Virus record (IMG/VR): IMGVR_UViG_3300050190_000082
Coordinates: 32,001 to 96,000 of that record
Origin: a virus
Strand: one strand, 5' to 3'
Length of the DNA: 64,000 nt
Part shown: positions 31,803-46,570 of the stretch, one piece after another
Position numbering within the stretch: position 1 is the first letter of the stretch
Layout: each line of letters starts with the position of its first letter
Translations under genes and position numbers: made by a program
The notes under the pieces: generated by a model
Database searches by the model: none
Told to the model about the DNA's origin: nothing
What the model saw: the letters and a program-made list of their open reading frames with translations, nothing else

Positions 31803-32012
31803 ATGATTTTTATTATGAAGAAAACAATTGTATATTCGCTAGGTGTTATTTCAGTAATCGAATTTGGAAGGTTTTTAATGGTTTCATCTAATGTATGGTT
31901 AGGGTGTGTTGGAATTGTTGTTTCACTAACTGGAATAGGGTTGACTGGATTATTCATTTACAAAAGGACACCAATATTGATAAATGAATTTAAAAGACTA
32001 CAAAAACGGTAA
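31803..32012 (+). CDS. small two-TM membrane protein
   Basis: AGGAGG RBS; hydrophobic. Confidence 0.6.
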   Translation: MIFIMKKTIVYSLGVISVIEFGRFLMVSSNVWLGCVGIVVSLTGIGLTGLFIYKRTPILINEFKRLQKR

Positions 32013-36279: not shown

Positions 36280-36403
36280 AATTAACGTTTTTGGTCTATT
36301 TAAGTTGATTTATGGATACTCTTAATATATACTCAAAAGAAGGGAATTGATTTATATGGAATTAGTGCCAAAAATATAATTTTTAATGGAGGGTGAATAC
36401 GAA

Positions 36404-37750
36404 ATGAGTAGAAAAAATAAATCACAAGAAGAAACATCTGCAACGTCAGAAATTGAGAATGATGCTATATGGGATAAGGGTACAAGAGATGGAGATAGTA
36501 CAGAGGAAGAGGAGGGGAAGGAAATGCCCCCATTATTATCCCTAAGTGAAAAACTGAGAATAGAAGAAGACAATAGTAAATCAGACAACGGCTTAGTTGA
36601 ATGGGAATTAGAGAATTGCCAACCTGTAATAATTAATAAAATAGTAGGTAAATATTCAGTCCCAATATCTGGGGGATTATTAGCTACTATGGCAAATGAT
36701 CTTTTGCTTCATTATAATGAGAAAACACAAAGGGGCAAAAAGCTACGAGCTAAGGGTGAAGTTCCTTACCTTATGGTTTCAAAAGTTAAAAAGATTTATG
36801 AAAAACTTATTTCTGGAGAGCTAAATGGAATGCTCATCAGTTTGAATTCCAGAATAATAAAAAACGAGAATGGGGAAATATTAAATCCCCTAAATTATGA
36901 TTCAGATTCACAAACTCTTAATGGCTCAGGGGAATTAGATGTGGTAGATGGGTGGCACAGAATTTCCGCATGTCAATACTGGCTTAAAAAATGGAAAATT
37001 AAAAAGAACAGAAAAATCATCCCTAGTCCTTGGGATTACGAGTTTATCACAGCAATTGAACATAAAGAAGAAGAAAATGCAGGTCTATTATTTGTTGAGT
37101 ATGGTTCTACTCAATTAAAAATTCAAACATCTAAAATTAAGTTTCTTGATGTTTTTGATTATGCAAATATGATCACTAGAAACCTGATGAAGGGGTCATT
37201 AAGAGACAAGATAGAAATAGATAAAAATAGAACAAAGGGTACGAATAATATTGTCACATTTGCTACATTAAATGATGCAATAAATGATAACTTTAAAATT
37301 CCAGTAGAGGAAGATGTTGAAAAAATAAGTACCTATTTGAACTTATTTTTCACTAAATTAATTAATATTTTCCCTGAGTATTTTGGTAATATGTCAAAAG
37401 AGGACAGATCAATAATGAGGACTAAGGATTTGAATCTTGAATTATTGATGTTTAGAGGTTATGTTGCTATTAGTTCTAGATTGTATGGAAAAGAAAATTG
37501 GGAAGATAGTTTGTCAAAACTTAGAAGTGTAATTCAAATCGGTTCATGGCGTGGTACTATACTGCAATCCGATTGTCCTATATGGGATAGAATTTTCAGA
37601 GGGGGAGATGAGCGTAAGATAGTTAGTGGAAGTACAACCGTTAAATATTGCAGTAATGTATTAGGCGATTATATTGAATTTGGCATTGATGAAACACTTA
37701 GGAAAATTAAAGAAGCTGATGAAGAGAAGTTTAGAAAATTGAACAAGTAA
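36404..37750 (+). CDS. DGQHR/DndB-like (ParB-superfamily) protein
   Basis: LDVVDGWHR motif, E...LF...G..Q pattern; acidic disordered N-terminus. Confidence 0.7.
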   Translation: MSRKNKSQEETSATSEIENDAIWDKGTRDGDSTEEEEGKEMPPLLSLSEKLRIEEDNSKSDNGLVEWELENCQPVIINKIVGKYSVPISGGLLATMANDLLLHYNEKTQRGKKLRAKGEVPYLMVSKVKKIYEKLISGELNGMLISLNSRIIKNENGEILNPLNYDSDSQTLNGSGELDVVDGWHRISACQYWLKKWKIKKNRKIIPSPWDYEFITAIEHKEEENAGLLFVEYGSTQLKIQTSKIKFLDVFDYANMITRNLMKGSLRDKIEIDKNRTKGTNNIVTFATLNDAINDNFKIPVEEDVEKISTYLNLFFTKLINIFPEYFGNMSKEDRSIMRTKDLNLELLMFRGYVAISSRLYGKENWEDSLSKLRSVIQIGSWRGTILQSDCPIWDRIFRGGDERKIVSGSTTVKYCSNVLGDYIEFGIDETLRKIKEADEEKFRKLNK

Positions 37751-37807: not shown

Positions 37808-38968
37808 TTATTTTATTTTTAATTTGTTTATGTATTCATCTAAGATAGTTTCCACGTTATCTATATCATAGTACCAAATTTCCAGAAAATTATATCTATT
37901 TTTAAGAGCGTATTCTTTCTTACGTATGTCGTGTTCTTTTTGCTTTTCTAGATTTTGTTTCATAAAATAGTTCCCTTTTCCATCGTTACCATCATGGAAT
38001 TCCCCTTGGTATTCTATAAGTAGTTTATATTGAGGCAAGTAAAAGTCATAAGATAATAATCCATTACCTAAACCAACAAGACCATCAAATTTTTTCTGAG
38101 GTATGTAATATTCTTTTCTTAAATCAAAAACCCTCTTGCATTCTCTTTCACCTTTTGATGTACTACATTCTGGACAACCACTATTAAATCCTCCATTTCT
38201 ACTCCCAATACTAGCTTCCCACTCATGTCTACACTCTTTACATTTCCACCAAACATATTTCTTACTTCTTCGTGTATATTCTTTAGGTGATTTGTCATTT
38301 TTATTGTAATCCCATTCTTTACAAAGTTCAGGATTATCTAATAATAAATTGTAATCATCACTTGGTAATATATGATTACAATATGGGCACCCACTATTTT
38401 GACTTGTTCTATTATTTAAGCTAACTTTCCATTCATGCTTTGAGTTATTTTTACATTGCCACCATATATCTCTCGGTAATCCGCAAGTTACATCAAAAGG
38501 AGTCAAATCTCCATTTAATGTTGGATGCCATTCGGATGCTAATTCAGGATTAAGTGTTGCTAAACAGTTTGATAAACCAACTAATTTCCCAGCACAATAT
38601 GGGCAACCTTTATTAAAATGTATTTTTGCCCACGTAGAATTGAATATCTCACAACATTTTATATTTAAACATTGCCATTTCATATCTATATCGTTTGCAT
38701 TATATATTTGATTCTCAATTAATTTAAATGGTTTATTATTATTTTTAACCCACAAGTTGATATTTTGAATTGTATAAGGATTTGTTTTTTGAAATTTTTC
38801 AGGGAGTGATTTTAAATTATTTAACTTTGTAAAGTAAAAATAACCTTCTATATCTTTAAATACTAATTTTTGTTTATTATTTATATATTCTTTGCTAACT
38901 AATTCAATTCCTAACTCTAAATTCGAAACAATTTCCCTAACCTCTTCAATTGTTTTCTTTCTTGACAT
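37808..38968 (-). CDS. Zn-ribbon repeat / Vsr-like putative homing endonuclease
   Basis: GCPYC repeats, PELASEWHPT.NG, LSYDFY..LIEYQG.FH..D..K..YA..LEIWY. Confidence 0.75.
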   Translation of the reverse strand: MSRKKTIEEVREIVSNLELGIELVSKEYINNKQKLVFKDIEGYFYFTKLNNLKSLPEKFQKTNPYTIQNINLWVKNNNKPFKLIENQIYNANDIDMKWQCLNIKCCEIFNSTWAKIHFNKGCPYCAGKLVGLSNCLATLNPELASEWHPTLNGDLTPFDVTCGLPRDIWWQCKNNSKHEWKVSLNNRTSQNSGCPYCNHILPSDDYNLLLDNPELCKEWDYNKNDKSPKEYTRRSKKYVWWKCKECRHEWEASIGSRNGGFNSGCPECSTSKGERECKRVFDLRKEYYIPQKKFDGLVGLGNGLLSYDFYLPQYKLLIEYQGEFHDGNDGKGNYFMKQNLEKQKEHDIRKKEYALKNRYNFLEIWYYDIDNVETILDEYINKLKIK

Positions 38969-39092
38969 AATCTTTTATCAATCCTTCCTTAATAGGTCTA
39001 TAATTTGGAATAAGACACTCAAACTCTAAGGAAAGTTCAAGCATCTCGTTTTAAAAGTTACAGACTTCGAACCCTGCAACTCAACCAAAAAT
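38969..39092 (-). ncRNA. structured cis-regulatory leader (T-loop hairpin plus pseudoknot), copy 1
   Basis: Stems with G-U pairs only on the minus strand; loop UUCCUUA complementary to UAAGGAA at the RBS. Confidence 0.6.
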
Positions 39093-39587
39093 TAATTTCA
39101 AATTTTTAAATCTACATAAAATAGAGACTTCTTTAAAAGCTCAAAACTTACCTCACTCATGCTCTCATATGCTTCCATTTACTCCAATTCCCTAGCATAC
39201 AAATAAGTTAAAATCTCCCTTTTATTTGAAGGTAACAAAACTTTTTAAGCAAAATATAGTTTTGCTAATACAATTTTTTGTTCTTAAATCCGCACAACAA
39301 AAAGGAGAGTTATATTTCAACTCTCCTTAAAACATAATTAACTTATTTTTACAATATCAATCAATCCCATTTCACAAAACTCAAATTTAGCGTATAATAA
39401 ACATAATAGTTAAGTAATATATTGAAAATCAAGAAAAATAACATTTGTATATATTATTTATTAGTAGTATAATAATTAATAAGGAGGTGAGGACTGTTAG
39501 GGATATCTTTTAGAAATATCTTTGGTAAGAAACAGGACCATCCATTCGCTAAAAAAATATCCAAAAGAAGAGAGGGGAAAACACTAC

Positions 39588-40997
39588 ATGAAAAAAACTA
39601 AAAAGTTCTTAGCTAGTTTGGTAATTATGGGTATGGTTGCTACCATGGTCCCACTAAATGTTTTGGCAGCAACAGGGGTAACAACGGATCGAATTGGTGG
39701 TGCAGACAGATATCAAACTGCTAATGCCGTAGCAGATAAGATTGTATCTCCGACTACTGCAATCCTTGCCCCAGCTGAAAATGATAACTTGGTAGATGCC
39801 TTAGCGGCAGCACCATTAGCTGGAACCAAATCTCCTATTTTACTGACGCAAAGCAACACCCTGACTGCTGCTACAAAAACTGAACTGGCTAAACTAGGCG
39901 TTACAAAGGTCTATGTAGTTGGAGCAATCAGCAAAACAGTCGTCGACCAAGTAAGTGCAATGGGTATTACAGTTACCACTCTCCAAGGCGCTGATCGTAT
40001 TGCAACTGCGGCTATGATTTCTTCTAAACTCACCACCGCACCAGCAGGTTCATTCGTAGTTGGCTATAATGCTTTGGCAGATGCATTGTCGGTAGCTTCT
40101 TATGCAGCAGCTAATAACTATTCTATCTTAGTAGCAAATCCTGATGGAAGCCTTCCGGTATCCGAGGCCACTTATAAAGGTGCTAAAGTTTACACCGTCG
40201 GTGGACCTAAACTCGTAGCAGACATCGCTGGTGCTACTCGTCTCGCGGATACAGATCGATTCGCTACGAATAAAGTCGTGCTCGAAACTCTTGGTTACAC
40301 CTATAACAAAGTCTATGTTGCTAACGGAACACAGGCACACTTAGTTGACTCACTCGTTGCTTCATCCTTAGCTGCCTTAGATGGCGCTCCAATCGTTCTG
40401 ACAGACACATTTACTGGCGGGGATGCTACTGCAGCTGCCATCGGTACTAAACTTGCTGACAATGCGGTAGTGGTTGCACTTGGTGGAGATCAGGTTGTTA
40501 CGAATGAAACTTTGGCGAAGGTTACCAAAATAGATTATACTTACACTGTAACAGACGGTAAAGCCCAAATTACGAGGTACACAGGGGATGGTGGAGCTAT
40601 TGCAATACCAAGTACATTAGGTGGAGTTCCTGTCATAAGCATCGGCTACGACGCTTTTTTCTATTGCACAGGCTTAACTAGTATTAGTATTCCGCAAGGA
40701 GTCACAAGTATCGGTGACGGGGCTTTTGCCTTTTGCACAGGCTTAATTAGCATTACCATTCCTAAAGGAGTCACAAATGTATCCAGCTATGTCTTTTACT
40801 ATTGTCCAAACTTAACTACTATTAACTTTAACTCGGCAACAACAACTATATATGATGATTCATACACAATTCCAGACACAACAAAGATTATAGGATATGC
40901 CTCATCTACCGCAAAAGATTACGCTACAAAATATGGAAACACGTTCGAAGTTATACCAGAAACGTTAGCTGCTTTAATGGACAGGATTCATACTTAA
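39588..40997 (+). CDS. cell wall-binding repeat 2 (CWB2) surface protein with BspA-type LRR
   Basis: Signal peptide, three G.DR..T / PILL repeats, IG..AF..C..L.SI.IP repeats; higher GC than flanks. Confidence 0.85.
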   Translation: MKKTKKFLASLVIMGMVATMVPLNVLAATGVTTDRIGGADRYQTANAVADKIVSPTTAILAPAENDNLVDALAAAPLAGTKSPILLTQSNTLTAATKTELAKLGVTKVYVVGAISKTVVDQVSAMGITVTTLQGADRIATAAMISSKLTTAPAGSFVVGYNALADALSVASYAAANNYSILVANPDGSLPVSEATYKGAKVYTVGGPKLVADIAGATRLADTDRFATNKVVLETLGYTYNKVYVANGTQAHLVDSLVASSLAALDGAPIVLTDTFTGGDATAAAIGTKLADNAVVVALGGDQVVTNETLAKVTKIDYTYTVTDGKAQITRYTGDGGAIAIPSTLGGVPVISIGYDAFFYCTGLTSISIPQGVTSIGDGAFAFCTGLISITIPKGVTNVSSYVFYYCPNLTTINFNSATTTIYDDSYTIPDTTKIIGYASSTAKDYATKYGNTFEVIPETLAALMDRIHT

Positions 40998-41099
40998 ATA
41001 TACACAACAAAAAAGAAGAGTAAAACTCTCCTTTAAGCTAAACTATAATTTCCACATATTCCCTATTGTAAATAAACCATAACCATGTTACATTTACCT

Positions 41100-41209
41100 T
41101 GCTTGATACCAAAGCAACCAAGTGTAGAATATTGTTCTACATTCTTCAAAGGAGATTATGCCTTCTTTGAAGAGGGAAGAAGATCATATTAATTTATGGT
41201 CTTCTTTTT
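41100..41209 (+). ncRNA. candidate sRNA (four hairpins)
   Basis: TTGTAA-N17-TACATT promoter, stacked hairpins, U-tailed terminator. Confidence 0.4.
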
Positions 41210-41258
41210 AATTATCTATTTTGAATCTAGGTTTTGATACGTTGGTTCATTTTCGATC

Positions 41259-41888
41259 CTAAATACTTTTAATATACCTTAACCCATTAGTAGAACTACC
41301 AGTATATAGGACTTCACAATCAACAATTTTATTTATGCGTTGAGTTGCTAAATTTACTTCCTTTGCATCAATTTGTATAAGTGTAATATCATTCTCTATA
41401 CAAAATGCAAGTTTATTCTTTTTAACTGGAGATGTATTATTTACTTCCACAGCAATTTCTATTTTACCTTTGTGAGAAAATGCAATATCAAATATAAAGA
41501 TACAATCAGCTACTCCTTTATATTTGCAAAAATTACATGGATGAGACTTAAAATATGTATAGTCTTCATCCATAATTAAAATATTTTGATTCCACTTGCC
41601 ACGTTCACTATCTGAAAATCTTGTATCAAATAATTCACAATCTTCTTCATAGGTATATGCTTTAATACATTGACAACACTGACCACTATGATAAGGTTCC
41701 ATTACACCTGATTCTTTATAGACATAGGATTCCATTGACCCAAATCCCATTCTGTCTATATCTATATGAAATCTGTATCCTTCTTGGTCTTGAAAAATAA
41801 CATCTTTATTGACAATCCAGTCCATTAGATACCCTTTGTTGTAATAATGTAATCCACCTTCATTTGACTTTAGTTCTGTAATCTTCAA
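41259..41888 (-). CDS. PD-(D/E)XK-like (CoiA-like) protein
   Basis: FDIA....IAVEV..T....K......I..I.I motif; GAAGGAG RBS. Confidence 0.5.
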   Translation of the reverse strand: MKITELKSNEGGLHYYNKGYLMDWIVNKDVIFQDQEGYRFHIDIDRMGFGSMESYVYKESGVMEPYHSGQCCQCIKAYTYEEDCELFDTRFSDSERGKWNQNILIMDEDYTYFKSHPCNFCKYKGVADCIFIFDIAFSHKGKIEIAVEVNNTSPVKKNKLAFCIENDITLIQIDAKEVNLATQRINKIVDCEVLYTGSSTNGLRYIKSI

Positions 41889-42125
41889 AATTTAAACATC
41901 TCCTTCAAAATTGATATAAAAATAAGAGAGTATTATAACTCTCAAAATATAAATTCAAATTCTGGACATAAATATTGAGCTTGTCTCAATATTTTGGACA
42001 GAGATTATGACGCTTCATAATCTAACCTGCTTCGTCGTCCCTATATCCCTAATTCATACACTTATCTATAAGCAAAAGGGGATTCTCTGTATTAAAGTAT
42101 AGAGAAGTCCCCTTAACAATATATA

Positions 42126-44087
42126 TTAGAAATTTATGTATCTTCTATTAGATTCTATATCCATATTATTATCTTTTAAATATTGCAACATAATTGGTTT
42201 AATCATTGACTTCTTAAATGTATCAGATTTAATATCCAATAATTCTTTTACTTTTGCTTTACTTAATCCTTGTTCAAGTAGTGTTTCATTCAAAATCAAT
42301 CCATCTCTATAATCTTCATCTGCTAAAACTTTATCAAAGAACTCAATCAAAGTTTCAACTACATCTTTTTTATTCTCTACAACCTTACCACTTTTCTTTG
42401 ATTGATATTTTAATCCCCAATTATATGTAATTTGGATATCAGGCATAGCTTTTTCAATAAGAGCATCAACTTCTTTATCTCTGTTTATCAAATAAGCATA
42501 AGTTTCAGGACAACCACCATCTACATATCCACGAGATTTAACTCTATTTAATGTTTGTACTATTAATGAACTAATCACAGATACTTTAACTTTCTCAAAT
42601 TCCTCTTGTTTGTATTTTCTATTGCCTTTGATTGGAATAAGAGTAGTATCTAAAGAATTAAATTTATCTGCTGATAGTTCATTCTCACTTACTGAACTTG
42701 TAAAATACATTAATGGATATATTGCATCTGGTAAAAGTTGAATCCCTAATACAAATATTAAATCAAACTCACTCCATTTATTACTTCCTATTGTCCTTCC
42801 ATAATGAGTAATATCAATTTGATCTATTTTCTCATATCCTTTAAATGCTTCTCTAATAATCTTATCTCTTTCTTCACCATTAGTAACTATCAATACTTTT
42901 TCAGCATCAGTTATTTTGCTTTTAATATCTTCAATAATTGTATCTAATAACCCATCCTCTAATCCTTTTCTCATTGATGCAGAAGAACCAGTTACTCCAT
43001 TAAAAATGTTTAAGTGCATATTCTTATATGATTTAATTTGTGGTAAATCTCTTACATCTGACTTGTTGTTAATCTCATATAAATAGTTAATACCTGATGT
43101 AGCGTCTAATGTTACTTTGTAGAAATAAGGATTATCCATATCAATGTACTTATATGTAATTATGGATTTATATTTTATATCGTCACTAATATTTACATAC
43201 CCACCAGTAGCTAACATTGTTCTAATTGCCAGATATGATTCTTTTGCTTGTTTATCTTTGCAAGTGAAGAATAATTCATCTAGTCCTTCAGGCACTTCAA
43301 TATTTTCAAAGGTAGAAAAGAATACGCTATTTTTCTTTATGTCATATGGCTTTAAAAATTCCTTCTTAATCTTAGTTACAAAACCATTAAATCTATCATA
43401 AATATCTTCATTACCCATATTCATAATTGCATTTTCCATTGCACAGATTGAGTTCATGCTGACTGTCATAAATTGAACATTGTTTATGGCTTCATCCACA
43501 ATCAATCTCTCCCTATAAAAAGTATTATATTTACCATGTTTAGTGTTAATTCTTTTATCAGACCACTCACATAATTTATTTACTTCATCTTTGTCAATCA
43601 ATTGTAGAAATCCATTATGAGTTAATACAATCACTGGATATTCTTTTAATTCTTCATTATCAATGGAGTTTCTTTTTCTATCATTAAGTTTATCAAATCC
43701 ACTGTGATAAGCATAAGCTAATTCTATTCCTGCTTTTCTATTAATTGATCTCACAGTTTCATCGCAATCTTCTTTTGTAAGTTTTAATATAATTGTCCCA
43801 GAATATGGTTGTAATAATTTGTTGTTTAACATGTAGGAAATACCATTATTCATTGCTGTAGATTTTCCACAACCAGTAGGAAAGTTGACTATTGCTTTCT
43901 TATCTCTGATAGGGTAAAACATAATGTAATAAAGTAATTGTTTAAGTCCTTTGTAGTATTCTCCACCACTAGGAATAATGACGTTGTAAGTTGCTAATTC
44001 TTTGATTGTTAATTCTGTTGCTTCTGCTACATGTTTCTTTTTTGTTTCAAGTTCCATCTTTTCTAGAAATTCTTTGTAATTCATCAT
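42126..44087 (-). CDS. divergent SF2 helicase-like / origin-binding-type protein
   Basis: PTGCGKST, LTH, IVDEA, LDAT, G.N.W, Q..NR motifs. Confidence 0.6.
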   Translation of the reverse strand: MMNYKEFLEKMELETKKKHVAEATELTIKELATYNVIIPSGGEYYKGLKQLLYYIMFYPIRDKKAIVNFPTGCGKSTAMNNGISYMLNNKLLQPYSGTIILKLTKEDCDETVRSINRKAGIELAYAYHSGFDKLNDRKRNSIDNEELKEYPVIVLTHNGFLQLIDKDEVNKLCEWSDKRINTKHGKYNTFYRERLIVDEAINNVQFMTVSMNSICAMENAIMNMGNEDIYDRFNGFVTKIKKEFLKPYDIKKNSVFFSTFENIEVPEGLDELFFTCKDKQAKESYLAIRTMLATGGYVNISDDIKYKSIITYKYIDMDNPYFYKVTLDATSGINYLYEINNKSDVRDLPQIKSYKNMHLNIFNGVTGSSASMRKGLEDGLLDTIIEDIKSKITDAEKVLIVTNGEERDKIIREAFKGYEKIDQIDITHYGRTIGSNKWSEFDLIFVLGIQLLPDAIYPLMYFTSSVSENELSADKFNSLDTTLIPIKGNRKYKQEEFEKVKVSVISSLIVQTLNRVKSRGYVDGGCPETYAYLINRDKEVDALIEKAMPDIQITYNWGLKYQSKKSGKVVENKKDVVETLIEFFDKVLADEDYRDGLILNETLLEQGLSKAKVKELLDIKSDTFKKSMIKPIMLQYLKDNNMDIESNRRYINF

Positions 44088-44099
44088 TGTTAACATCTC

Positions 44100-44185
44100 C
44101 TTCAATATTGTCCTTAAAAATATAATAAACAGACAGGCACTAAGGATTGTGCTTTTCGGATGGCCTACCCTAGTCTGTTTATTTG
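44100..44185 (-). ncRNA. three-way-junction RNA leader with pseudoknot near the RBS
   Basis: P1 AAUAAACAGAC/GUCUGUUUAUU, GAAAA junction, loop UCCUUA complementary to downstream UAAGGA. Confidence 0.55.
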
Positions 44186-44572
44186 TGCCAAATTAAGACA
44201 CACAAAAAGCACCTCAATAAGAAGTGTTTTTAATCTGCCATAATTTTTTAATAAAAGGAGAGCTATTTTAACAATAACTCCCCTAAACCCTATAAAATCA
44301 TTTTACACTTTTAGAATACCATTATTTACGTCACTCATGCTCCTATTTACTCCATAATGCTTCCATATACTACCCAATCTGTTTTGAAAATCACGATCAA
44401 TTAAAATTCCAATTTTAATCTGTTAGAGATTATGTAAGTCAATTACACTAATATGAGCCATATTTAAGAGTTTGAAGTATAATGTGATACATAAATTGGT
44501 ATAAGATGTAGAAATTTTACTTAGAATATTTGACATAATTATTTCTCCTTTTATAATTATTATTGATTTGAA

Positions 44573-45256
44573 TTATACTGTTGGAGTAATGCTTTTTTGT
44601 ACATTTTCAATAACATGTTTAATTGCTACTTCTGCATCTGCCGTAGCCTTAGCTAAAACTTGATTATAAATTTCCTTCATCATATCTTCTGATACAACAA
44701 TAGGAGATACACTAACAGGCGTAGGAATAACTTCTACTGGAGTCTGAATTTCTGGTGTAATTGGAGTTTCTGGAACTATTTCAGGAATGTCTTCAATCAC
44801 AGGAATAGCAGGTGCTTCAGAGGTTTGGATATCTTCAGGAATACTTGGAACTTCGTCTAAAATAGGCTGTATTGAGTTGAATTGTTCAGTTTGGATGATT
44901 GGTTGGGTATCAATATTTGGAACGCTTAGAACATCATTTAAACCTTGTTTTAGTTGATTAACGCAAGGCTCAATTAATGATTTCCATTGATCTGATGTCA
45001 ACTTAATACCATACTTCTCAGCAATTATTTGGGCTGATGCTAATGCAGAATTTAGTTTCTGTTCATTATTAAGTCCCAACTCTTTTGAAATTTGATTTGA
45101 GTATGCAACCGCATTTAGCGATATGACCTTTGCTGTTTCAAGTTGCTTTGTTGATAGATGTTGACGAATAAAAATAACCAAATAACCCACAAGAATAGGT
45201 GTAGCCGTAGTAACGATAGTGAGAATCAAATTGTACAAAATTGTAGTAAAATCCAT
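44573..45256 (-). CDS. phage holin (LL-H-like) with Pro/Glu-rich extension
   Basis: N-terminal TM, AV...Q......KL..A......GI......LIE..V pattern. Confidence 0.65.
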   Translation of the reverse strand: MDFTTILYNLILTIVTTATPILVGYLVIFIRQHLSTKQLETAKVISLNAVAYSNQISKELGLNNEQKLNSALASAQIIAEKYGIKLTSDQWKSLIEPCVNQLKQGLNDVLSVPNIDTQPIIQTEQFNSIQPILDEVPSIPEDIQTSEAPAIPVIEDIPEIVPETPITPEIQTPVEVIPTPVSVSPIVVSEDMMKEIYNQVLAKATADAEVAIKHVIENVQKSITPTV

Positions 45257-45285
45257 GTTCTTACATCTCCTAATTATTTATTTGT

Positions 45286-46449
45286 TTATATTAAAAAAGA
45301 ATTACCTTTGTTAGATAATTCTTTAAGATAGTTGTCCAATATTGTTTCAATATTATCAAAATCCCAATACCAAATCTCTAAAAAATTATATCCATTAGAT
45401 AATGCATATTCTTTCTTACGCTTATCATGTTCTTGTTGTCTTGCGAATTGTTTTTCTGCAAATTCTAGTCCTTTGCCTTTAAAATCTATTGGCTTCTCAT
45501 GTTGTTCTCCTTGAAATTCTATCAAAAGATTATATTTTGGGACATAAAAATCGTATGATAATAAACCACCACCTAAACCAATAAGCCCTTTAAATTCTTT
45601 TTGAGGTATGAAATAAATATTATTTTTATTATTGAATAATTTAATTGCTTTTTCTCCTACTGATTTGTTACATTCTGGGCAACCGTTATTATTTCTTTTA
45701 CATATGGGCGTTTCCCATTCATGTCCACATTCTTTACATAACCACCATGCGTATTTGCCACTTCCACATGTTACATCATAAGGAGTCAAATCTCCATTCT
45801 TAGTAGGATGCCATTCTTTAGCTAGTTCAGGATTAAGTGTTGCTAAACAATTCGATAACCCTACTTGTCTTCCAGCACAAAATGGGCAACCTGCACCAAT
45901 ACTAATATGCCCCCAATCACATTTAAATTTTTCCCCACATTTTAGACACTGCCATTCTAATTTTTTATCAGACCCATTATATTCTTTGCTAACAAGTATA
46001 AATGGTTTATTATTAAACGTACACCATAATTCTATGTTTTGAAGTGTATATGGGTTTGTTTTACCAAATATTTCAGGCACTCCTTGTTGTTGTAAGGTTA
46101 CTAAGGATAAGGCATAGAAATACCCTTCACTATCTTTAAATATCAATTTATTATAAGCTCTTATATATATATCACTTATTAACTCTAATGGTATATTATT
46201 TAATTCTATTAAGAGTTTAATATTTTGTATTGTATATGAGTTAGATTTATGAAATTTTCTCGCTTTTTTATTAGTAATAAGATTATTCAATTCAACCTCA
46301 TAATAGTAACCATCTTTATCTTTTATTAATAATTTTTGGTAATTATTTATGTAATATTTAGTTAGCAATTCATATCCCAAACTATTAATAATTTCTTCAA
46401 CCTCTTGGATAGTATGTTTCTGTGAGTTTTTACGTCCTCTATCTGACAT
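45286..46449 (-). CDS. Zn-ribbon / Vsr-like putative homing endonuclease (paralog of 37808)
   Basis: Shares CLATLNPELA.EWHPT.NGDLTP.DVTCG and LSYDFY..LIEFQG.QH. Confidence 0.75.
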   Translation of the reverse strand: MSDRGRKNSQKHTIQEVEEIINSLGYELLTKYYINNYQKLLIKDKDGYYYEVELNNLITNKKARKFHKSNSYTIQNIKLLIELNNIPLELISDIYIRAYNKLIFKDSEGYFYALSLVTLQQQGVPEIFGKTNPYTLQNIELWCTFNNKPFILVSKEYNGSDKKLEWQCLKCGEKFKCDWGHISIGAGCPFCAGRQVGLSNCLATLNPELAKEWHPTKNGDLTPYDVTCGSGKYAWWLCKECGHEWETPICKRNNNGCPECNKSVGEKAIKLFNNKNNIYFIPQKEFKGLIGLGGGLLSYDFYVPKYNLLIEFQGEQHEKPIDFKGKGLEFAEKQFARQQEHDKRKKEYALSNGYNFLEIWYWDFDNIETILDNYLKELSNKGNSFLI

Positions 46450-46570
46450 TATTTAATTTCCCCTTCCGTCATAGAAAAGCACAAATGGAAGAAGAGACCC
46501 ATGTAACGGCATAAGTCTCTAGTTTTACACTTATTAGACTTCGAACCCTAATAAGAAACCATATATTTAT
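46450..46570 (-). ncRNA. structured cis-regulatory leader, copy 2
   Basis: Same AGGGUUCGAAGUCU hairpin; loop CCGUUA complementary to UGACGG next to the RBS. Confidence 0.6.

Follow-up and report, generated by a model that had tools for sequence, protein, structure and literature searches.

A covarying, pseudoknotted leader RNA in front of homing-endonuclease-like genes of Clostridia-type phages

In the genome of an uncultured virus, two genes for homing-endonuclease-like proteins are each preceded by a structured RNA leader in which three helices meet in a junction and a hairpin loop pairs with a segment at the ribosome-binding site. The stretch of DNA analysed, referred to below as the window, comprises 64,000 nucleotides (nt), namely positions 32,001 to 96,000 of the IMG/VR virus record IMGVR_UViG_3300050190_000082, a record of 153.8 kb in total, and both leaders lie on its minus strand. 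The leader is found in Clostridia-type phages, its fold is real to near certainty, and it is linked exclusively to genes of the homing-endonuclease type. Its function is probably the control of translation initiation in cis, most likely as a brake.

Architecture and covariation of the leader

The two window copies, leader A and leader B, and the genes that they precede are made up of the following parts, with scores for two covariance models, R1 and R2; P1, P2 and P3 denote the three helices.

38969..39089, minus: leader A, entire element, P1 5' strand through the last base ahead of ATG (46.2 bits with R1, 61 bits with R2)
39089-39085 with 39008-39004, minus: leader A P1, UUUGG paired with CCAAA
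39055..39082, minus: leader A P2 hairpin, 10 base pairs (bp), with the self-complementary loop G-UUCGAA-G (GUUCGAAG) at 39065-39072
39054-39048, minus: leader A linker UUAAAAC
39012..39047, minus: leader A P3 hairpin, with the loop segment UUCCUUA (39033-39027) as the 5' strand of the pseudoknot
38982..38991, minus: 3' strand of the leader A pseudoknot, UAAGGAA (38991-38985), overlapping the Shine-Dalgarno (SD) sequence GGAAGGA (38988-38982)
38968, minus: start codon ATG of gene A
37808..38968, minus: gene A, homing-endonuclease-like, 386 amino acids (aa), with two DUF4379 zinc fingers and a C-terminal nuclease-like domain
46450..46562, minus: leader B, entire element, P1 5' strand through the last base ahead of ATG (91.4 bits with R1, 86.4 bits with R2)
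46562-46559 with 46488-46485, minus: leader B P1, AUGG paired with CCAU
46530..46555, minus: leader B P2 hairpin, 8-9 bp, with the loop G-UUCGAA-G at 46539-46546
46529-46521, minus: leader B linker UGUAAAACU
46493..46520, minus: leader B P3 hairpin, 11 bp including two G-U pairs, with the loop CCGUUA at 46504-46509; scored terminator-like
46459..46471, minus: 3' strand of the leader B pseudoknot, UGACGG (46471-46466), running into the SD sequence GGAAGGGGA (46467-46459)
46449, minus: start codon ATG of gene B
45286..46449, minus: gene B, homing-endonuclease-like, 387 aa, 44% identical to gene A

The window copies are about 115-120 nt long, and the phage carries exactly these two according to the model search. 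All copies, in the window and elsewhere, share one order of parts, in which P1 (UGG/CCA) is followed by UU, a variable P2, an A-rich linker and a variable P3 with its loop L3, the latter pairing with 5-7 nt that lie directly 5' of the SD sequence or overlap it. The unpaired bases kept in all copies are the joint J1/2 (UU), the joint J2/3 (GUAAAAC or GUAAUUAAAAG) and the 8-nt P2 loop, which reads G-UUCGAA-R or G-UUGCAA-R, while the stems vary freely. Leader A has a predicted folding energy of -28.5 kcal/mol (z -3.8) when read from the coding strand and of -11.7 kcal/mol (z -0.7) when read from the opposite strand; for leader B the two values are -22.8 and -18.6 kcal/mol, a smaller gap than in A.

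Covariation was measured on a model-based alignment of 19 hits. Standard pairs occupy 97.2% of the aligned cells, changes on both sides are seen in 23 of the 28 pairs, including all nine P2 pairs and all nine P3 pairs, and the fourth pair of P1 occurs as A-U, G-C, U-A and G-U, with the reservation that the alignment was fitted to P1-P3, so that these figures are somewhat inflated. None of 500 shuffles reached any of the covariation measures, and sliding the partners by 1-3 columns lowered pairing to 36-49%.

The pseudoknot was left out of the model and is nevertheless 90.9% paired. Direct inspection distinguishes about ten sequence versions of the pairing between L3 and its target, namely CCGUUA:UGACGG and CCGUUA:UAACGG, UUCCUUA:UAAGGAA, CCUAUA:UAUAGG and CCUAAUA:UAUUAGG (in which an insertion in the loop is matched by one in the target), CCGAUA:UAUCGG and CCGAU:AUCGG, CCUGAA:UUCAGG, CUGUCA:UGACAG, and (A)CCUUUA:UAAAGG(U). 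Complementarity over the full length was present in 9/9 cognate combinations, compared with 3/70 non-cognate ones and 5.4% of shuffled targets, a difference indicating that the pseudoknot is real.

Within P2, conservation is confined to the 8-nt loop G-UUSSAA-R, since the closing pairs AGG/YCU covary in three copies (L060b, L068b and L214b). The hexamer of the loop is UUCGAA in nine copies and UUGCAA in the other nine, and it is self-complementary in 18/18, including the three copies found by the model alone. The two central states, CG and GC, are scattered over the tree, with six changes on the best tree, at least two of which are forced by well-supported branches. A scan in which these two bases were left free yielded no further true member, and no partner for the loop was found in cis between -300 and +500 nt.

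The collection of 18 distinct leader sequences was assembled by several routes. Apart from the two window copies, the sequences come from viral and metagenome contigs: homologous leaders were found through protein relatives in viral contigs (L011, L012), others were added by a pattern scan of viral contigs (L052, L061, L064, L070), two that the pattern had missed were recovered on the same contigs by the covariance model, which was built from five copies (L060b, L068b), and the remainder were added by a metagenome scan combined with the model (L197, L201, L209, L214b, L219, L222, L225, L227). One sequence occurs also in a metagenome-assembled genome of Clostridium sp. (L108, identical to L061), the sole true copy among the bacterial-genome matches listed, the others being chance matches. 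The single match of a first short pattern was a chance match inside a coding region, a pattern match inside coding DNA (L196) was rejected as a member, and blastn of both leaders against deposited phages gave no match.

These results can be set against a preliminary description of the same DNA, which had proposed a conserved, covarying, pseudoknotted cis-acting leader RNA and had named the lack of further homologues or of covariation as an outcome speaking against it. The covariance model and the scans gave 18 covarying copies, and these, together with the match between L3 and its target, support the proposal. The two leaders lie on the minus strand at the positions and with the order of parts that the description listed, and its statement that the G-U pairs work on the coding strand alone agrees with the folding energies of A and B. 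Its second hairpin exists, although the length of 11-12 bp does not hold for P3 of leader A, which has 13-16 bp, and the invariance that it ascribed to the first hairpin is limited to the loop. The comparison of that loop with a T-loop has to be given up, as UUGCAA, present in half of the copies, breaks the position corresponding to C56 of tRNA and keeps the self-complementarity; ARAGORN likewise finds no tRNA in the window. The covariation of P1, the location of the L3 target described in the next section and the resemblance to int-alpA RNA go beyond that description.

Ribosome site, transcript context and downstream genes

An SD sequence such as AAGGAG or GGAGG begins immediately after the target in most copies. 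The distance from the 3' end of the target to the start codon ranges from 9 to 28 nt, with most values at 15-18 nt, as counted from the sequences. This placement, abutting or overlapping the SD sequence, bears out the earlier suggestion that the leader is positioned to control the ribosome-binding site. In 15 of 17 copies a weak hairpin enclosing the target as part of its loop is predicted, formed by the SD sequence and a complementary pyrimidine tract (anti-SD, typically UCUCUU) situated 2-3 nt upstream of the target.

A sigma-70-like promoter is located 12-25 nt upstream of the leader in five copies, which places the whole element within the 5' untranslated region. In several others the leader begins 4-8 nt behind the preceding gene's stop codon. 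The visible promoters lie upstream of P1, and a sigma-70-type scan detected no promoter inside the leaders, although the late-promoter type of these phages may differ. A candidate promoter composed of the P2 loop (TTGCAA) and the linker was rejected, its spacing being only 12 nt. A possible mini open reading frame (ORF), NUG-GUU-NNN-NNN-UAG, runs across P1 and P2 (window 46562-46548, minus, and the equivalent place in most copies), and the first base of its NUG is A, G or U, never C. It was judged coincidental, because no SD sequence stands in front of it, the fixed length of the stem accounts for the in-frame stop and the covariation of P1 explains the NUG; it may be relevant in copies where the leader begins 4-8 nt behind the end of an upstream ORF. 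About 210 nt upstream of leader A lies a terminator-like hairpin of 11 pairs followed by a U-run (window 39302-39328, minus), which has no minus-strand gene before it, and between this hairpin and leader A there is a possible ORF of 26 codons with an SD sequence.

The gene downstream of the leader is homing-endonuclease-like in 18/18 copies, and these genes belong to at least four unrelated families, namely the zinc-finger or phrog_559 type, phrog_12131/phrog_3339, the HNH or endonuclease VII-like type (phrog_1035) and GIY-YIG (phrog_314). Moreover, two near-identical leaders (L060a and L197) have different genes downstream. Both observations argue against the binding site of one particular nuclease and against an RNA cofactor, so that the earlier suggestions of an autoregulatory site, or of an RNA cofactor that travels with one nuclease family, are not sustained. 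Instead, it looks as if a portable control module were being passed from one mobile gene to another.

Genes A and B are paralogues, each encoding two DUF4379 zinc fingers, and match the PHROG homing-endonuclease families phrog_559, phrog_9084 and phrog_7140. Pfam gives only a sub-threshold DUF559 match for their C-terminal domain, and sequence and profile searches of the PDB matched the DUF4379 zinc-ribbon region alone and nothing in the C-terminal nuclease-like domain, so that the label of endonuclease rests on the PHROG families. A third, distant relative of these nucleases, 37% identical over 150 aa, lies outside the window inside an open frame of 611 aa (G000:C1:3054-3473, plus), and neither R1 nor R2 detected a leader there. 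On another viral contig, IMGVR_UViG_3300024999_000132, a GIY-YIG homing-endonuclease gene of 308 aa has a simpler leader (L068:2825-2934, plus; 21.7 bits with R1, 26.3 bits with R2). This is a hairpin with the loop UCCUUUC, to which GAAAGGA is complementary at two sites, the second site being the gene's SD sequence.

As for the neighbourhood in the window, gene A directly adjoins a convergent DndB-like gene (36386-37750, plus; DNA-sulfur-modification-associated, E 1.3e-10). Gene B is flanked by a holin-like ORF of 227 aa (44573-45256, minus), in which the Holin_LLH match covers residues 8-104 only; no family matched its C-terminal half, and no close relative of the ORF was found in the viral contigs. 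A host of the Clostridia type is suggested by two genes of the virus, which encode an LLH holin and a CWB2 wall-binding protein.

Relation to known RNAs

No Rfam family reaches the gathering score on the leaders, with nothing but noise at E values up to 10, and no description of the leader was found by full-text searches in a collection of PMC and bioRxiv papers; its absence from Rfam fits the earlier suggestion of a possibly new motif. Self-cleavage, which had also been raised, receives no support, as no ribozyme family matches.

The nearest relative by topology is int-alpA, an orphan candidate RNA typed by Rfam as a small RNA (sRNA). Both consist of P1, a 2-nt joint, P2, an A-rich joint (GAAAA in int-alpA, GUAAAA in the leaders), P3 with a CC-containing loop, a 2-nt joint, the returning strand of P1 and a spacer, and in both a segment ending in GG, near the ribosome site, is complementary to the P3 loop. 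The P2 loop of int-alpA is also self-complementary, with ACGU in the consensus and GGCC in the window copy. In contrast, P1 has 3-5 bp in the leaders and 8 bp in int-alpA, P2 has 8-11 bp with an 8-nt loop instead of 4 bp with a 5-nt loop, P3 is longer in the leaders, and the pairing of L3 with its target varies freely, whereas int-alpA has a fixed CCUU/AAGG. The genomic settings differ as well, the leaders standing beside homing-endonuclease genes and int-alpA, as far as its family name tells, beside integrase and alpA genes; one leader (L064) has an integrase gene upstream of it, but the gene that it precedes is of the HNH type. The int-alpA model gave no match on leaders A and B or on 12 related loci at E values up to 10; by score, therefore, the leaders are not members, but they share the int-alpA architecture in a long-armed, AT-rich form. 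The window also contains a true int-alpA RNA (RF02996) at 44112-44180 (minus), with 54 bits against the gathering threshold of 35.8 bits for the family. It sits upstream of an ORF of 659 aa with a weak match to DEAD helicases. The segment UAAGGA (44116-44111) is complementary to its P3 loop, UCCUUA, and precedes by a few bases a second SD-like sequence, GAAGGAG, with an ATG near 44086.

By function, the nearest precedent is found in T-even phages, where hairpins that sequester the ribosome-binding site control I-TevI, I-TevII, I-TevIII, segB and Aeh1 mobE (PMC2988022). In both cases an RNA structure just upstream of the start of a homing-endonuclease gene involves the ribosome-binding site, with the presumed purpose of limiting or timing nuclease synthesis (PMC2988022). 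Each T-even leader consists of one local hairpin, the hairpins form no common sequence family, and relief comes from a late promoter placed within the hairpin (PMC2988022). The leaders described here, in contrast, have a conserved multi-helix fold with a long-range loop pairing, their visible promoters lie upstream of the element, and the hosts are of the Clostridia type.

Two further groups of RNAs invite comparison. In the preQ1-I, preQ1-II and SAM-II riboswitches, the SD sequence contributes its first bases to a pseudoknot helix, so that sensor and expression platform form one fold. The leaders resemble them in this use of the pseudoknot helix and differ in having a three-way junction and an additional conserved hairpin, in having no known ligand and in matching no Rfam family. 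The dimerisation initiation site of HIV-1 presents a six-base self-complementary word in a loop, flanked by purines, whose variants arise by paired changes. A purine-flanked self-complementary hexamer kept through paired changes (UUCGAA/UUGCAA) is likewise present in the P2 loop, although the setting is the leader of a phage message instead of a viral genome and the AU-rich loop would kiss weakly.

Proposed function and alternative explanations

The organisation of the leader suggests a mechanism in which it acts in cis on the messages of free-standing homing endonucleases. The three-way junction of P1, P2 and P3 would present the P3 loop for pairing with the 5-7 nt at the 5' edge of the SD sequence, and in most relatives, in which the target lies in the loop of a weak UCUCUU/AAGGAGA hairpin, the resulting loop-loop kiss would lock a hairpin that sequesters the SD sequence. 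The folded state would hinder binding of the 30S subunit and keep the synthesis of a potentially harmful nuclease low, and some transcripts may in addition end at P3 and the UUUUCC that follows it. The conserved P2 loop and the junction bases probably respond to a further input by which the brake is set or relieved, for which pairing with another copy of the leader or the binding of a common factor would be candidates.

Several points weigh against a brake of this kind. The SD hairpin is weak in leader B (-1.4 kcal/mol) and absent in leader A, and in both window copies the pseudoknot covers only the first 2-4 bases of the SD sequence. The pairing of L3 could equally hold the SD sequence open against the anti-SD tract, which would make the leader an activator, and a simple brake leaves the conserved junction bases and the P2 loop unexplained. 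In addition, two relatives with 51% identity to gene B (L009 and L010) have an ordinary ribosome site and no leader, and the element is therefore not obligatory.

The unexplained bases are the starting point for regarding the leader as a switch in place of a fixed brake, in which the three-way junction with its conserved joints would sense a small molecule, as a riboswitch does, or an RNA-binding protein of phage or host, and binding would decide whether L3 holds the ribosome site. Conserved unpaired bases in junction and loop, combined with freely varying stems, are indeed the pattern of aptamers and protein operators, and the merging of the expression platform with the fold recalls the riboswitches whose pseudoknots sequester the SD sequence. 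Such a switch is a serious but rather unlikely alternative, since the regulated genes are solely mobile nucleases, without a metabolic theme that would give a clue to a ligand, no candidate ligand or protein was found, the unrelated nucleases make their own products unlikely as a common binder, and neither kind of binding accounts for the self-complementary loop. A less probable but still serious alternative is a trans-acting sRNA of about 90 nt, transcribed from its own promoter and ending at P3 with its U-run, whose L3 would act as antisense on the ribosome site of read-through transcripts or of other cognate messages. The terminator-like P3 of leader B, the 4-6 U residues among the 8 nt after P3 in 13 of the 18 distinct copies, the promoters belonging to some copies and the sRNA type given by Rfam to the topologically similar int-alpA all speak for it; however, the U-run is short and broken by CC, five copies have only 2-3 U, the copies beginning 4-8 nt after an upstream stop codon have no room for their own promoter, and the distance to the target, which is invariably downstream in the same unit and on the same strand, is 10-25 nt, so that pairing in cis is kinetically favoured. 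It is, finally, very improbable that the element acts at the level of DNA, in which case P2 would be an operator palindrome, a homing-related site or a cruciform and the folding of the RNA would be incidental. The centre of P2, TTCGAA or TTGCAA, is a palindrome in DNA, and in one copy (L214b) the whole 28-nt arm is a perfect palindrome, but the G-U pairs of P2 and P3 function on the coding strand only, the stem sequences differ among copies and leave no common half-site, and the covariation of L3 with its target would be meaningless in DNA.

The flipping of the P2 loop from CG to GC with retention of self-complementarity hints at RNA-RNA kissing, and pairing between two copies of the loop would be the simplest explanation of its sequence. 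A wider proposal can be built on this, although it is speculative and rather unlikely as a whole: two leaders may kiss tip to tip through their P2 loops, so that translation of homing-endonuclease messages, or their processing by RNase III, would depend on the amount of message, int-alpA would work alike, and the two would together form a general class of dimerising anti-SD leaders on mobile genetic elements.

As selfish nucleases, homing endonucleases need to be restrained by the phage, and to our knowledge almost nothing is known about their control outside the T-even phages. The freely changing and yet matched pair of loop and target could be reused as a source of orthogonal translational brakes. 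The self-complementary loop raises the possibility of dimerisation between messages as a regulatory input, for which we know of no precedent in phage or bacterial messages. In the phages described here, one conserved and intricate RNA fold serves at least four unrelated families of nucleases, and this fold suggests a function for the orphan motif int-alpA.

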